The notes beneath the pieces are model-generated. The model worked only from the letters and a program-made list of their open reading frames with translations. It ran no database searches and was not told where the DNA came from. From assembly GCA_963793265.1 (NCBI GenBank), contig CAWBZI010000006.1, positions 64,001 through 128,000 of the forward strand: a DNA stretch of 64,000 nucleotides, read 5' to 3'. This document shows positions 19,622 to 63,426 of the stretch, in pieces; the stretch's first letter is position 1; each line of letters starts with the position of its first letter. The translations under genes and the position numbers were made by a program. This stretch comes from an uncultured cyanobacterium (lineage in GTDB: Bacteria > Cyanobacteriota > Cyanobacteriia > Phormidesmidales > Phormidesmidaceae).

Positions 19622-20104
19622 GTGGGCGTTGCTTTGAGAGCGTATTTGGAGCCGATTGCGGCTTGGTTTGCGCAGTTTAATTTACCGGAGCCGATTGTGC
19701 ATTGGGGGCATCCGGTGATGATGGCGATTGTGGTGTTTGTGATGGGTGGGGCAGCAGCTTACGCTGGGTGGCAGGGGCGGCTGGCGACTGATGCGGGGGT
19801 TGCAGTTGAGCAAAAGCAGACTCACGCGAAGATTTCGCCACTAATGTACTTGTTTATTGTGTTGGGAGCGACGGGTGGGATTTTGTCGCTGGTGATGCAG
19901 GGTGAGCCGATTTTGGAGAGTCCGCATTTTTGGACGGGGATGGGGGCGATCACACTCCTCACTACAAACGCAATCATCGCAGCAACAAAGTTCGGCAAAA
20001 ACAACGAAGCACTAAGATCGGCGCATGCCTACATTGGCAGCGCGGCTTTGATCTTGCTGGTTGTTCACGCCGTCTTTGGGACTCAGCTTGGCCTGTCCAT
20101 CTGA
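19622..20104 (+). CDS. DUF4079-like membrane protein
   Basis: HWGHPVMMAIV and ESPHFWTG with four hydrophobic helices carrying conserved His. Confidence 0.7.
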   Translation: MGVALRAYLEPIAAWFAQFNLPEPIVHWGHPVMMAIVVFVMGGAAAYAGWQGRLATDAGVAVEQKQTHAKISPLMYLFIVLGATGGILSLVMQGEPILESPHFWTGMGAITLLTTNAIIAATKFGKNNEALRSAHAYIGSAALILLVVHAVFGTQLGLSI

Positions 20105-20221
20105 TAGAACCTAATTTAGTTTGAAGCGAAAAATCTGTAGAAGAGAGGCATGGGGTTATCCCGTAGCCTCTTTTTTATTGAAGCGGGTTCTTTAAACAAA
20201 AGAAGTAGATGGATTCGTAGT

Positions 20222-21778
20222 ATGGCGGCCTGGGGTGTTTTGATTGTTAGCTGGGCCTATATTTTGGGTCTGCTAGTTACGGGAATCAATGATTTTAGAG
20301 TTTTAGGTGGGATTTCTGGTGCGGGTGGGGTTGTTTTTGCTGCAAGCGCTGTTGCGGGAGCGTTGATTCCTCGGTATTGGAGGATGGGGCCGACGCGGCG
20401 GCAGTGGTGGATAGCAGGATTAGTGGGGTGGGTAGCAGCGAGCTACTGTCTATGGACAACGCCTGTTCCTGCTGCGAATGATGTTAGCCAATTTGCCTCA
20501 CCGCAGGAGCAGCGGGTTCTGGGAGAGGTTTTGGAAATGCCGAGAACGACGCGGCATAACAAGGGGCAGTTCTTCTTTAAGGCACTTTCGATTCGTAAAA
20601 GAACTGACTGGGACAGCTTTTCTAGGGATGAGGTGGGTGGAAAGCTTTATGTAACAGCGCATTTGAAGCCGAGTAAGCGGCTGTACCCTGGGCAGATGGT
20701 TGAGCTAAAAGGAATCTTGGAGAAGATAGAGGGTTCTAAAGATACGGAGAAATCTAGCTTTGGTGACTACCTAGCAAAGAAGGGGTGTTTTGCAAAGTTT
20801 AAGACTAAGTGGGTGGAGTTTTTACCGGATCAAGAGCAGCCGCGTTGGGCAGTGTGGCGTTTGCGGCAGCGGATTGTGACAGCACAGGCGCGATGGTTAG
20901 GTGAGCCTGCTGGAAATTTATTGAGTGCGATGACGCTAGGGCGGAAGGCGGTAGATTTGCCTTATGACGTAAGGGATAGTTTTATCAAGGCGGGATTGGC
21001 GCACACCTTAGCAGCATCTGGGTTTCATGTGTCGCTGATATTAGGGTTAGTGCTGGGTGGGCTGAGGGCACAGCCGCCTCGGACGAGAGCGATCGCAGGA
21101 GCCCTAACCTTACTTATGTACATCGGACTAACAGGACTGCAGCCGAGCGTTGTCCGCGCATCTGTGATGGGATTTGGCGCGCTGATTGGGCTAGCGTCAG
21201 AAAAGCAGGTCAAACCTTTGGGTTGCCTACTGATAGCAGCGAACTTGATTTTGCTATGGAATCCCCAGTGGATTTGGGACGTGGGGTTTCAACTTAGTGC
21301 TGTAGCAACACTAGGGTTAATTGTGACGGTGCCATGGCTGATGGCACAAATGGACTTTTTGCCGACAAACGTGGCGACTATGCTGGCGGTGCCGATGGCG
21401 GCGTATTTTTGGACGATTCCTCTACAGCTTTATTATTTTGAGGTGCTACCGCCCTATAGCGTTCTGCTGAACGGGCTTGCGACGCCTTTGGTCGTAGCGA
21501 TTAGCGTGGGTGGGTTTGTAAGTGCGGCGGCGGCGATGGTTTTACCTATTTTAGGAAGTGCGATCGCTGCTATCTTCTACTACCCCATTTACTTATTGAT
21601 ATGGCTAGTGGGATTATTTAATCAACTTCCAGGTAGCTCAGTCGAAGTAAAAGGCATAGGCGCAATAGCAGTAGTTGTTAGCTACAGCATCTACGCAGCT
21701 ATTTGTATATGGCTGTGGAGGAAAGAGCAAAAACGACAAACACTTTTTGAGACTGAATTAGAAGGGAAATGGGTGTAA
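20222..21778 (+). CDS. comEC: ComEC/Rec2 family competence protein
   Basis: GLAHTLAASGFHVS, PSVVRASVM and DVGFQLS motifs; multiple transmembrane helices; start uncertain (20150 or 20222). Confidence 0.85.
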   Translation: MAAWGVLIVSWAYILGLLVTGINDFRVLGGISGAGGVVFAASAVAGALIPRYWRMGPTRRQWWIAGLVGWVAASYCLWTTPVPAANDVSQFASPQEQRVLGEVLEMPRTTRHNKGQFFFKALSIRKRTDWDSFSRDEVGGKLYVTAHLKPSKRLYPGQMVELKGILEKIEGSKDTEKSSFGDYLAKKGCFAKFKTKWVEFLPDQEQPRWAVWRLRQRIVTAQARWLGEPAGNLLSAMTLGRKAVDLPYDVRDSFIKAGLAHTLAASGFHVSLILGLVLGGLRAQPPRTRAIAGALTLLMYIGLTGLQPSVVRASVMGFGALIGLASEKQVKPLGCLLIAANLILLWNPQWIWDVGFQLSAVATLGLIVTVPWLMAQMDFLPTNVATMLAVPMAAYFWTIPLQLYYFEVLPPYSVLLNGLATPLVVAISVGGFVSAAAAMVLPILGSAIAAIFYYPIYLLIWLVGLFNQLPGSSVEVKGIGAIAVVVSYSIYAAICIWLWRKEQKRQTLFETELEGKWV

Positions 21779-21793
21779 GATATAAGCCACTCT

Positions 21794-21880
21794 GGAGAGG
21801 TGGCAGAGTGGTTGAATGCGGCAGTCTCGAAAACTGTTTTAGGGTCAAACCTAACGGGGGTTCGAATCCCCCCCTCTCCG
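21794..21880 (+). tRNA. tRNA-Ser (CGA)
   Basis: GGAGAGG acceptor stem, anticodon arm GCAGT-CTCGAAA-ACTGT, long variable arm, GGTTCGAATCC. Confidence 0.95.
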
Positions 21881-21899
21881 TTCACTGAAGTTCGATTGG

Positions 21900-61669: not shown

Positions 61670-61860
61670 CGTGACCTCCTTTAAGCGAGCTGTATCAAGT
61701 TTTTTGGCTACAGCAAAACCATTATAAAAACTCCTGAGCGAAATTACCCAGAAGTTTTTAAGTTTGCGCTTCTATCCTGCAAGCTTAAGCGACACACTCA
61801 GGCGTTTGCATAGGACGTTTAGTTCTTTGTTAGCGCAGCAGAGCGACTTTAAAGAGCGCT

Positions 61861-62332
61861 TTAGTAGCGATAGTGAGCAAACGCCTTGTTCGCCTCAGCC
61901 ATCCGGTGCGTCTCTTCGCGCTTACGAACCGCGCCACCCGTTTCATTAGAAGCGTCGATCAGTTCATTCGCTAGCTTCGTAGCCATCGTGCGACCACCGC
62001 GAGAGCGAGAGAACTGAGTGAGCCAGCGTAGGGATAGGGCCGTACCACGCTCGGAGCGGACTTCCATGGGTACCTGATAGGTTGCACCACCGACTCGGCG
62101 GGCCTTAACTTCCACTAGAGGGCGTTGTGTTACGAACGGCTGTTTCAAAGACTTCTAGGGGCTCGGTGCCAGTGCGCTCTTCAATAATTTTGAACGCGCC
62201 GTAGAGAATTTTATTGGCAACGGATTTTTTACCACTGAGCATGATTCGACGAGACATCATGCTAACGAGGCGGCTGTTGTAGACAGAATCGGGAGGGACG
62301 GTGCGCTTTTGCGCGGCTGAGCGGCGTGACAT
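61861..62332 (-). CDS. rpsG: 30S ribosomal protein S7, split by one extra base at 62120-62122
   Basis: [10 protein letters not shown]...AVRNTTP continues as [17 protein letters not shown]...[12 protein letters not shown] in the next frame. Confidence 0.93.
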
Positions 62333-62562
62333 GAGGCTTTAACCTTTGTGTAAATAGGGTGGAAGCAGTTTTTCAAAAAATAGAGATTGCTTACGAGTGG
62401 AACCAGCGGTGAAAAACGCAACGAACCTGGTTAATTAAGGGAGATAAGGACATCAGCATTGCCCAAGTCTTTCAAATTAATTAGGTGACACCAAAAGGTT
62501 GACCTTCGCAAAAGAGGATATTGTCTAAGAGAAAGCGACTCGCCAAAGAGACTGCAAATGAA

Positions 62563-62943
62563 TTAGGAGGCTGCTTTTGGCTTTTTGGCACCGTACTTAG
62601 AACGGCTTTGACGGCGGTCTTTAACACCCGCTGTATCCAAAGTGCCGCGAATGATGTGGTAGCGAACGCCAGGAAGATCCTTAACACGACCGCCGCGAAT
62701 CATTACAACGGAGTGCTCTTGCAGGTTGTGGCCGATACCGGGAATGTATGCGGTAACCTCAAATCCTGATGTGAGGCGAACCCTGGCCACTTTTCTTAGG
62801 GCTGAGTTTGGCTTCTTAGGGGTGGTTGTGTACACGCGAGTGCAAACACCACGACGCTGGGGGCAGCTCTGAAGCGCTGGAGATTTGGTCTTTTTGGTAG
62901 CTTTATTACGCTCTGTGCGAATGAGCTGTTGAATCGTAGGCAT
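62563..62943 (-). CDS. rpsL: 30S ribosomal protein S12
   Basis: [31 protein letters not shown]. Confidence 0.98.
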
Positions 62944-63081
62944 ATAGGCGTGGGGATTTAAGAGCGCAGTAGTTAATTACGCCGTGAGATAAGTTGTCAT
63001 GAGAAGCAATAGTATCAATTATTTTTTCACCCTGTCAATCGGTTCGACCGAACAGTTTTGCCAGGCAGTTTGGATGAAGGG

Positions 63082-63426
63082 TCAGTGGCGAATGGCGAAG
63101 GCGTATCCACAGCGGCAGCTTTCGGTGGCTAGCGGGTTGTTAAAGCGGAAGGCTCCGCCTGTGAGATCTTCGGAAAAGTCTATTTTGAGATCGCGGATGT
63201 AGTCGAGGCGATCGCGCTTCATCACCAACTGCACTGTCGCCACACCATAGCCATCAAACGAGTACACATCGTCGTCATCATCTACCTCATCGTCAAGCGA
63301 GAGCACGTAAGACCACTCAGCGCAGCTACTCGGCTGAAGCGTCAGCCGACAAAACGAAGTAGGCCGACCTTGCCGGGTTCTGAGTCTGTTAATTTCTTGG
63401 CAGGCAGCAGGGGTGAGCTGAATCAT
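63082..63426 (-). CDS. HesB/IscA family Fe-S cluster assembly accessory protein
   Basis: MIQLTPAA..EI, IDFSEDLTGGAFRFNNP, CRCGYAF. Confidence 0.8.
   Translation of the reverse strand: MIQLTPAACQEINRLRTRQGRPTSFCRLTLQPSSCAEWSYVLSLDDEVDDDDDVYSFDGYGVATVQLVMKRDRLDYIRDLKIDFSEDLTGGAFRFNNPLATESCRCGYAFAIRH

Follow-up and report, generated by a model that had tools for sequence, protein, structure and literature searches.

Across the genome of an uncultured cyanobacterium, the octamer HIP1 (GCGATCGC) sits at an abrupt step in strand composition, with a GC skew of +0.36 directly 5' and -0.36 directly 3' of its 6,888 sites. HIP1 is highly over-represented in this 5.68 Mb genome, with about one copy per kb and 1,158–1,352 per Mb on all seven contigs. 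Its function has not been established for about three decades (PMC5861425, PMC13756078), and we found no report of a flanking skew in the literature searched.

HIP1 sites in the 64-kb window

The pattern was originally noticed by eye in a window of 64,000 nucleotides, the whole stretch of contig CAWBZI010000006.1 that was analysed, where 14 sites within genes on both strands had been named. All 14 are GCGATCGC and lie on the gene strands claimed (eight plus and six minus in our own gene calls), Pfam agrees with the names comEC, rnj and rnhB, and a GntR regulator fits plmA. The four hand counts given at that time (24 G/8 C, 3 G/27 C, 21 G/12 C and 8 G/21 C) are exact. The sites and their GC skew are listed below.

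19861–63300: span of the original prediction; 39 HIP1 sites, of which 35 show a positive G-C step; the pattern extends beyond the span to the whole genome
21560–21567: HIP1 in comEC (20222–21778, plus strand); GC skew over 100 bp +0.35 upstream, -0.03 downstream
29810–29817: HIP1 in a minus-strand gene; GC skew over 100 bp +0.06 upstream, -0.19 downstream
30899–30906: HIP1 in a plus-strand gene; +0.37 upstream, -0.21 downstream
31748–31755: HIP1 in a plus-strand gene; +0.37 upstream, -0.35 downstream
32181–32188: HIP1 in a minus-strand gene; +0.06 upstream, -0.72 downstream
38120–38127: HIP1 in a minus-strand gene; +0.44 upstream, -0.70 downstream
40825–40832: HIP1 in a plus-strand GntR-family gene (Pfam); +0.33 upstream, -0.28 downstream
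43053–43060: HIP1 in a minus-strand gene; +0.40 upstream, -0.46 downstream
43532–43539: HIP1 in a minus-strand gene (43333–44670); +0.14 upstream, -0.42 downstream
48644–48651: HIP1 in a plus-strand gene; +0.26 upstream, -0.33 downstream
50352–50359: HIP1 in the RNase J gene (plus strand, Pfam); +0.18 upstream, -0.35 downstream
55007–55014: HIP1 in the RNase HII gene (plus strand, Pfam); +0.40 upstream, -0.25 downstream
56617–56624: HIP1 in a plus-strand gene; +0.04 upstream, -0.32 downstream
63208–63215: HIP1 in a minus-strand gene; +0.26 upstream, -0.37 downstream
21089–61021: 25 further HIP1 sites within the span, beginning at 21089, 23663, 23773, 24835, 25322, 25958, 27529, 28099, 28385, 28798, 29417, 30461, 30813, 36053, 40187, 40312, 46982, 51588, 51790, 55184, 55298, 56859, 57525, 58453 and 61014
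1245–11968: 12 more HIP1 sites to the left of this span, same pattern, starting at 1245, 2009, 2086, 2785, 3617, 4020, 4335, 5383, 6673, 8775, 9927 and 11961
665–36212: the decay form GTGATCGC/GCGATCAC, present six times, starting at 665, 19946, 28585, 31163, 31393 and 36205

The pattern is real: over 100 bp, 44 of the 51 HIP1 sites in the window have a positive G-C step, five a negative one and two a step of zero. Their mean step was 16.6, compared with -0.03 ± 1.5 for random positions (maximum 5.5 in 2,000 draws). Choosing sites by eye had inflated the effect, since the named sites average 32.9 and the 37 unnamed ones 10.5 (30 positive). With regard to the claimed switch from G/T-rich to C/A-rich, the G/C part held, whereas T/A contributes little (+0.03 to +0.06 upstream across all sites in the genome) and almost nothing at four-fold degenerate sites.

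Shape of the skew and its sequence requirement

Genome-wide, the mean G-C step is 13.9 ± 0.16 and positive at 86% of 6,887 sites (z ~90); the median for palindromic octamers with at least 10 copies (n = 192, HIP1 included) is -0.56. On the strand leading into HIP1, the C fraction at four-fold sites drops from 0.28 to 0.12 and the G fraction climbs from 0.29 to 0.45, with A and T about flat; the purine share beside HIP1 reaches 0.61–0.66. This shift is equal on sense and antisense strands and control motifs are flat, which supports the view that codon or transcription bias does not explain it. The skew is strongest at four-fold sites, followed by intergenic positions and then by codon positions 1 and 2, and G/C rises in all 24 sequence contexts. 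It decays smoothly with a length of 57 bp plus a tail of about 1 kb, with no periodicity obvious by eye, and between neighbouring HIP1 sites it is antisymmetric and about zero at the midpoint. Both arms shift by 0.9–1.1 logit regardless of regional skew. Values per contig range from 0.34 to 0.41 on all seven contigs, the value deep inside long genes is 0.41, a 50 kb block bootstrap gave 0.390 ± 0.006, and removal of duplicated flanks left the skew unchanged.

Strong skew occurs only at HIP1 and its decay form GTGATCGC, which carries 0.92 of the HIP1 step genome-wide; the T-containing decay form is over-represented 3.2-fold. Once the HIP1 kernel was removed, the top 15 of 31,876 8-mers were GTGATCGC, overlaps, or other near-HIP1 words. 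GTGATCAC gave 0.07 ± 0.11. In the palindromic octamer scan ATCGCGAT had a z of 10.9, probably reflecting overlap with HIP1. At distances above 300 bp from HIP1, none of ten GATC hexamers had a strong step, the largest being that of CGATCA, which contains the decay form, and CGATCG outside HIP1 had little or none. HIP1 half-sites, of which GCGATCG should be enough on its own strand under Elhai's G(m)C-directed model, reach at most about 0.4 of an arm. Variants in the first base retain 0.22–0.44 of an arm on the intact side and -0.36 to +0.22 on the other, with net steps of 0.29, 0.11 and -0.07, values that are confounded by fossils and local composition. The step needs the full octamer. Alternative repeats were flat as well: GCSGC, a short dense motif, gave 0.028 ± 0.029 on a plasmid of Gloeothece verrucosa PCC 7822 (336 sites, 100 kb only), and GGGATCCC gave 0.018 ± 0.039 in genome G021 (54 sites). 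A step at control octamers had been named as evidence that would count against the original prediction; these were flat, and the HIP1 sign change persists at four-fold sites.

Site history and distribution

Between genomes G063 and G137, 464 of 571 HIP1 site observations (both directions counted) were kept at a four-fold p-distance of 0.44. In comparisons with relatives the skew was lowest at recently gained sites, and orthologous positions without HIP1 kept a small positive skew (0.01–0.22). Of two classes of site loss, 011 retained the skew (0.46), compared with 0.18 in 101. As judged from these alignments, the comparison shows that the skew accumulates once a site has arisen and usually outlasts its loss, in agreement with a HIP1-anchored, strand-specific process in which the site comes first and the skew second. 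One genome, G004, was paired with 120 kb of G009 only. A metagenome scan for a close strain gave a best match of 75–76% identity. The G059/G101 pair is 97% identical and too rearranged for site matching.

The whole-genome probe ratio exceeded 1 in 89 of the 100 cyanobacteria having enough sites, with a range of 0.58 to 3.6. Samples of 20 kb from G017, Planktothrix and Acaryochloris looked flat; their genome-wide ratios are 2.24, 1.42 and 2.44. In the HIP1-rich families f6 and f18, MutSL is present and the flip is absent.

Substitution spectrum

At two-fold sites on the upstream strand, C>T (×1.27/1.22) and A>G (×1.41/1.56) are raised, and the complementary G>A (×0.82/0.90) and T>C (×0.60/0.68) are lowered; each complementary pair sums to about 2.1, and here the reversibility assumption is unneeded. 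The four-fold GTR rates assume reversibility and are model-based ratios from pairs of which even the closest have diverged by 0.5–0.9 substitutions per four-fold site; among them A>G (1.66), C>G (2.05) and C>A (1.74) go up, C>T being the least changed gain (×1.09), and T>C (0.75), G>C (0.70) and G>T (0.61) go down. Drops in the complementary changes offset the gains partly or fully, and overall the rate near HIP1 is only 1.0–1.1 times background (×1.06–1.13 in the four-fold GTR estimates). Four-fold complementary sums range from 2.0 to 2.75 (A>G plus T>C 2.40 ± 0.12) and, being above 2, allow some net extra mutation. A 12-rate non-reversible fit was unstable, and a rise in A<->T from an earlier fit was gone with more data. 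The spectrum does not support deamination of exposed single-stranded DNA as the cause: the upstream rise in C>T and A>G is present at two-fold sites (×1.2–1.3 and ×1.4–1.6), but the complementary changes go down there and four-fold C>T hardly changes.

Proposed mechanism and alternative explanations

In our preferred explanation, to which we give an even chance, the strand 3' of HIP1 is preferentially excised and re-made, so that the other strand prevails at mispairs. If X is the part of a strand 5' of HIP1 and Y the part 3' of it, X pairs with Y beside any site. HIP1 would offer a fixed entry point of two-fold symmetry. Starting there, Y would be removed 5'->3' and resynthesised on X, in excision tracts of mostly about 50–60 nt and, in a tail, of up to about 1 kb. 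Since Y would be removed and re-made on X, a mispair within reach would be resolved for X, whichever strand is new. Wrong bases in X (G opposite T, G opposite G, A opposite G or oxidised G) would become fixed and mirror errors on Y removed; over time X would gain G and lose C with little change in total rate. Removal 5'->3' downstream of the site was already part of the original prediction, and we hold it with the same evenly balanced confidence. We infer the nick, its direction, a role for MutS and MutL, the error-bearing strand and the enzyme. In E. coli, G:G mismatches are repaired best and C:C mismatches very badly, while MutS has a high affinity for G:T (PMC3167615); this ranking matches the spectrum if Y is the replaced strand. 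Likewise, the 1 kb tail matches the mismatch-repair range given by Elhai (PMC4390886 section 3.4). Repair blind to the new strand would fix errors and is hard to see as adaptive. It is possible, though we lean slightly against it, that a putative protein reads the whole octamer and licenses one-way 3'-strand excision regardless of which strand is new, in a sequence-programmed, undescribed cyanobacterial repair.

Biased gene conversion would use the same geometry on existing alleles instead of new errors: HIP1 would start or end a heteroduplex during transformation or chromosome-copy exchange, and mismatch repair would reject the Y-side allele in well-seen mismatches. We consider this unlikely, although HIP1 in a homology arm raised transformation up to 7-fold unmethylated and >100-fold methylated (bioRxiv 10.1101/2024.09.10.611283), HIP1 co-occurs with pilus and uptake genes according to part of PMC13756078, and comEC lies inside the window. 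The flat total rate also agrees with it, as does the up/down symmetry per allele pair in distant pairs, which fit conversion or fixation bias equally well. Conversion predicts equal treatment, however, and in closer pairs A<->G goes up and C<->T down (sums about 2.3 and 1.9), as do C<->A and G<->T, respectively; both contrasts have moderate support only, with correlated errors. Transformation tracts are moreover usually longer than the 57 bp scale. Damage to single-stranded DNA after HIP1 nicking and resection, by deamination as first proposed or more widely with oxidation and lesion bypass, appears improbable. The raised two-fold C>T and A>G on X, the 6–13% increase in total rate and the complementary sums above 2 speak for it, and by established chemistry G>T, G>C and T>C on Y form an oxidation-like set. 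Damage cannot, on the other hand, lower T>C, G>T, G>C or G>A; a deamination skew expects an unchanged purine share and no falls, whereas purines rise, T is flat, A/T barely move, the largest four-fold gains include transversions and C>T gains least. The best deamination-only equilibrium for A/C/G/T (0.12/0.18/0.41/0.29) also fails to fit the observed 0.20/0.12/0.46/0.22.

Selection for a G-rich approach and a C-rich exit that help a protein load or move at HIP1, as an extended fuzzy signal, would agree with the conservation of HIP1 and, through fixation bias, with the flat total rate. In several genomes HIP1 also has published extensions such as GGCGATCGCC, with G before and C after the octamer (PMC4390886, as given in Table 3). 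These have the same polarity but cover 1–2 bases, unlike the present gradient over hundreds of bases, and the smooth decay to about 1 kb, the occurrence in every context, the maximum under least constraint and the persistence after site loss in one class make selection quite improbable. We regard a replication-linked origin, with HIP1 marking Okazaki priming, fork pausing or local termination, as very improbable: the polarity resembles that of a terminus, and the regional skew of this genome is made up in a similar way (slope of TA skew on GC skew 0.17), but a lagging-strand process would hit one arm, whereas the shift is equal on both arms whether the region is G-rich or C-rich, regional skew being a proxy for replichore in a 7-contig assembly. 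Finally, HIP1 might arise at G-rich/C-rich junctions through hairpins, codon or protein context, repeats or gene calls, as the small positive skew at positions without a site might suggest. This reverse causation is largely refuted and deserves hardly any weight: skew is lowest at recently gained sites, controls are flat, and neither gene length, contig, duplicated flanks nor block bootstrap alters it. A hairpin or quasi-palindrome origin was rejected, as mirror complementarity is absent (mean -0.003).

Relation to known systems

Preferential excision of the 3' strand resembles the G(m)C-directed mismatch repair model of Elhai, in which a MutH-like nick at methylated HIP1 is followed by MutS/MutL excision with a reach of about 1 kb (described in part of PMC4390886). 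That model explains the gain of HIP1 itself, whereas ours explains the flanking skew; the terms 'skew' and 'asymmetr' have no hits in the available text of PMC4390886. Unlike in Elhai's model, the alternative HIPs GCSGC and GGGATCCC lack a step and strength is independent of the DmtC-like m5C enzyme. The raised rates near HIP1 imply that repair sometimes goes against the parent strand. E. coli Dam/MutH shares a methylated palindrome as nick site and a mismatch-type-dependent efficiency, but E. coli GATC has at most a trace of skew (0.043 ± 0.020 at 4–30 bp; 437 sites, 100 kb) compared with about 0.5 at HIP1. Excision in E. coli is bidirectional. Under MutHLS, GATC alone would be the signal, which is not the case for the HIP1 skew, and only the new strand would be corrected, so that rates only fall; instead, three four-fold classes rise ×1.7–2.0 near HIP1 and two classes also rise at two-fold sites, as model-based estimates from diverged pairs. 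Vsr repair likewise has a nick at a methylation motif and then 5'->3' re-synthesis, but Vsr occurs in just 2 of 141 genomes, neither of them G000, and the T-containing decay form is over-represented, not depleted. mutH is reported absent from all cyanobacteria (PMC5101192).

As a recombination hotspot or uptake signal, HIP1 has in common with Chi that an over-represented octamer stimulates recombination. Chi, however, is non-palindromic and strand-biased, whereas both arms of the HIP1 palindrome are equally affected, and the HIP1 transformation effect survived addAB deletion in a study that does not report flanking skew (bioRxiv 10.1101/2024.09.10.611283). In the available text of PMC13756078 'skew' occurs twice, both times on taxon sampling. 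In eukaryotes, recurrent break positions at replication origins are marked by a mutational footprint around them (PMC9645720), and break geometry sets a 60–80% strand bias in mismatch resolution after single-strand annealing (PMC9001825), but with other enzymes and no tie to a short methylated palindrome.

Among 141 genomes, skew strength tracked none of the genes tested (MutS, MutL, DmtC-like, ExoVII, Vsr). MutS is present in 140 and MutL in 129, both of them in G000. An orphan C5 methyltransferase of 436 aa, conserved in 28 genomes, is a candidate DmtC, with a median ratio of 1.25 with the enzyme (28 genomes) and 1.25 without it (72). Two other C5 methyltransferases were discarded as sporadic or restriction-type, a Dam-like ORF was recognised by motif only, and plasmid and atlas searches gave no identity for the methyltransferases. 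Our own prediction that ExoVII (105 genomes) abolishes the polarity fails, as strong-flip genomes carry it; the median ratio is 0.95 without ExoVII (n = 16, five inferred from family tallies) and 1.30 with it (n = 84), and within-family contrasts go both ways, kin not being independent.

Implications

The footprint is large, directional and dated, and gives the polarity, the reach of the tracts (about 57 bp and 1 kb), recognition of the full octamer, the spectrum, and lineages with strong and null effects, by which the general idea of HIP1 in repair or recombination becomes a set of specific bench predictions. Proteins are affected too: within 45 bp of HIP1, the upstream flank encodes more Val, Met, Glu and Gly, and the downstream flank more Thr, Asn, Ile, His and Pro (log2 up to ±0.4). 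Analyses of codon usage, GC skew and selection in cyanobacteria may therefore be biased near HIP1. If a sequence-programmed repair system of the kind considered above exists, HIP1 copies would form a grid of entry points for repair across the genome, one that has measurably reshaped synonymous sites and proteins in most of the class.

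Skew at HIP1 sites

HIP1 is an abundant palindromic octamer; X and Y here denote the strand parts 5' and 3' of a site (X pairs with Y), and the step is the G-C excess 5' minus that 3' of the site. The window, C6:64001-128000 of genome G000, contains 51 HIP1 sites, and the 100 bp step was positive at 44 of them (mean 16.6 vs -0.03 ± 1.5 at random positions). The original prediction, made from examples picked by eye, was that the top strand turns from G/T-rich to C/A-rich at HIP1. Its four hand counts of G and C were exact on recount, its 14 named sites lay on the gene strands claimed according to our own gene calls, and the flip extended beyond the chosen examples, as the step was positive at 30 of the 37 window sites that it had not named. 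Over the whole genome of this uncultured Phormidesmidaceae cyanobacterium (G000, 6,888 sites), GC skew was +0.36 over the five bases before HIP1 and -0.36 over the five after, decreasing to about ± 0.03 by 200 bp, and 86% of the sites had a positive step (z about 90). The G/C part of the predicted flip was borne out (13.9 over 100 bp), but the T/A step reached only about one third of this (4.4). At four-fold sites 7–12 bp from HIP1, X contained 0.12 C and 0.45–0.47 G, as against 0.28 and 0.29–0.30 at 0.5–1 kb, while A and T shifted by at most 0.015. In a logistic fit the skew decayed on two scales, one of 57 bp (1.25 logit) and one of roughly 1 kb (0.44–0.51), and between adjacent sites it was antisymmetric.

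The sign change persisted when positions were split by gene strand: four-fold skew was +0.57 with X as the sense strand and +0.58 with X as antisense, and intergenic skew was +0.23. The 4,880 genes were called with a purpose-made ORF and dicodon model, so that all codon-class results rest on this one gene set. Four-fold skew at 7–60 bp was 0.390 ± 0.006 in a 50 kb block bootstrap, 0.41 for 2,945 sites deep inside long genes and 0.34–0.41 on each of the seven contigs; no hairpin pairing across the HIP1 flanks was seen in G000. These observations make an artefact hardly conceivable. Both arms (the two sides of a site) were equal in each of five regional-skew classes, the skew was found in all 24 neighbour contexts, and the median step of 192 palindromic octamers was -0.56.

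Regional four-fold GC skew was patchy in contigs C1–C7, ranging from -0.31 to +0.34 per 100 kb, and did not divide cleanly into two replichores. Amino acids within 45 bp of HIP1 in G000 also differed, with Val, Met, Glu and Gly upstream and Thr, Asn, Ile, His and Pro downstream. HIP1 is absent from the window between 11961 and 21089, and an rRNA operon with two spacer tRNAs lies at 12904–18167 on the minus strand.

Order of events and sequence recognised

Skew was compared with site presence in a trio of genomes (G063, G137 and G000; 191 orthologues, 23,161 four-fold sites with outgroup). It was 0.51–0.55 at sites common to all three; the other cells held n = 78–470 each. Older private sites showed 0.39–0.44 in lineages with the site vs 0.02–0.14 in those without, and recently gained sites 0.18–0.19 vs 0.01–0.13. 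Of the two site-loss classes, one had a skew of 0.46 and the other 0.18. Three pairs with G000 concurred (0.31–0.46 with the site, 0.06–0.16 without), and two close pairs were weaker and noisier (0.15–0.41 and 0.10–0.29); in the G009/G004 pair, one class showed no difference. In the trio and pairs the skew follows site presence, and therefore HIP1 comes first and the skew after.

GATC hexamers and other CGATCG octamers away from HIP1 gave little or no step in G000, as the predicted specificity for HIP1 implied. One-base variants were scored after subtracting the HIP1 kernel: on either side GTGATCGC had 0.92 of the full arm, against 0.29–0.38 for ACGATCGC, GAGATCGC and GCAATCGC and at most 0.11 for the remaining eight. 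GTGATCGC was also over-represented 3.2-fold (other variants 0.65–1.14). In 26 of 54, 15 of 40 and 8 of 28 observations its orthologous place carried HIP1; GTGATCGC itself was seldom conserved between relatives. We read it as recently decayed HIP1, which probably arose through methyl-C deamination; it may also be partly active itself, because 0.92 exceeds the estimate for a pure fossil.

Range across cyanobacteria

The probe compared G with C at two positions, 10 and 13 bp ahead of HIP1 (codon-frame baseline 1.0 in G000). We probed 141 genomes of the class and scored 100, leaving out 41 with fewer than 150 hits. The ratio exceeded 1 in 89 (z > 3 in 64; median 1.25, range 0.58–3.62). It was highest in families f1 (genus g1 2.4–2.9, g16 3.5–3.6) and f21 (2.74), and the flip was missing in f6 (1.02–1.03) and f18 (0.89–0.99, 8 of 8). 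Genome G156 (stretches L236–L242) was weakly reversed at short range (probe 0.58; skew -0.10 ± 0.02 at 4–30 bp); here CGATCG, not HIP1, is the hyperabundant motif (424 CGATCG in 119 kb; ACGATCGT vs HIP1, 41 vs 26). In a second, hand-picked set all 38 genomes were above 1, 33 at z > 3 (G264 duplicates G152), including Acaryochloris sp. (2.44), Microcoleus anatoxicus (1.98), Symplocastrum (1.43), Cylindrospermum (1.42), Planktothrix (1.42), Nostoc sp. (1.32), a Pseudanabaenales genome (1.11) and a Xenococcaceae genome (1.05). The footprint is real, strong and widespread.

Lower C and higher G on X also marked DNA of f10, f16, f21 and Nostocales, with tract length differing by lineage. The flip was gone by about 30–60 bp in G158 (L246–L248) and still 0.12 at 121–250 bp in G063 (L151–L170); such differences may reflect different excision tracts. 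Larger genomes tended to have a stronger flip (rho 0.55), and probe density showed no correlation with flip strength, kin being non-independent in both comparisons. Three other motifs lacked a step, namely GGGATCCC in genome G021, GCSGC on a PCC 7822 plasmid and CCWGG in E. coli; E. coli GATC gave a trace at most. Among the class genomes compared, none of the candidate genes (MutS, MutL, ExoVII, Vsr and a DmtC-like putative orphan C5 methyltransferase) tracked flip strength.

Several side observations concern methyltransferases and site content. G063 carries two DmtC-like copies, an intact one (60% identity) and a closer one (77%) at C17:93769-95064 that is interrupted by two internal stops. 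In G000, the C5 methyltransferase genes at C1:809848-811017 and C4:93034-94084 seem to be disrupted, with internal stops or in two pieces, and a methyltransferase at C6:501118-502338 is similar to the SacI family by one named match. GAGCTC (7), GGCGCC (9), GCCGGC (10) and CCCGGG (6) are near-absent from G000, consistent with restriction avoidance. L146 (G107:C1:3273000-3292999) has no HIP1 in 20 kb, though other members of genus g29 do; no clear replacement octamer was found there.

Substitution spectrum and mechanism

Substitution rates on X near relative to far from HIP1 at two-fold sites (s.e. 0.05–0.15 for closer pairs), and ratios from a four-fold reversible fit. All ratios are indicative, because the pairs are diverged and a non-reversible fit gave no usable result.
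Change	Closer pairs	Distant pairs	Four-fold fit
C>T	1.27, 1.22	1.28, 1.32	1.09
G>A	0.82, 0.90	0.68, 0.81	0.94
A>G	1.41, 1.56	1.17, 1.35	1.66
T>C	0.60, 0.68	0.66, 0.65	0.75
C>G			2.05
C>A			1.74
G>C			0.70
G>T			0.61

Since a palindrome cannot choose a strand, the polarity must stem from a directional process starting at HIP1, and we are nearly certain that some HIP1-anchored strand-asymmetric process exists. Divergence beside shared sites was not elevated (p 0.42–0.44 vs 0.445), the total rate near HIP1 was 1.07 (1.06–1.13 over three reversible four-fold fits), and complementary sums in the tabulated fit were 2.0–2.75. Rises and falls that so nearly cancel suggest that what is decided near HIP1 is which strand prevails at a mispair. 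HIP1 would then be the start of 5'->3' excision in which Y is replaced, and X would win with G facing T, G facing G and A facing G. According to PMC3167615, E. coli MutS corrects some of these mispairs well and C:C poorly, a preference that matches the X winners only if Y is replaced, which means 5'->3' excision from HIP1. The geometry proposed for HIP1 is the same as that of E. coli hotspot mispairs, for which PMC13250602 infers templating by G at G:C>C:G hotspots and by T at the strongest A:T>G:C run hotspot. We regard this excision and replacement of Y, settling mispairs for X, as evenly poised between right and wrong.

A strand-choice model and the fitted ratios both come near the observed composition of X. 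Deamination of an exposed single strand, the cause put forward in the original prediction, cannot reach that composition alone, and damage to single-stranded DNA is improbable as the source. Biased conversion during recombination, the foremost rival, is unlikely; selection appears less probable than strand damage, and a replication-linked cause would be very surprising.

Relation to known systems

Excision of Y from HIP1 would make this a strand-asymmetric repair footprint. It behaves like nick-directed mismatch repair and, on the features tested, belongs to none of MutHLS, VSP and Chi; tentatively, an undescribed repair system may lie behind it. The footprint is apparently unreported: the literature searched, mostly without subscription papers or supplements, held no earlier report of HIP1-flanking skew, and an earlier mention is possible. 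The word 'skew' is absent from PMC4390886 and PMC5861425 and occurs twice in PMC13756078, on taxon sampling only. The nearest published facts, in PMC4390886, are one- or two-base HIP1 extensions and the repair model of Elhai, who also describes S. elongatus as having HIP1 and lacking a CGATCG methyltransferase. The footprint makes the question of HIP1 function testable.
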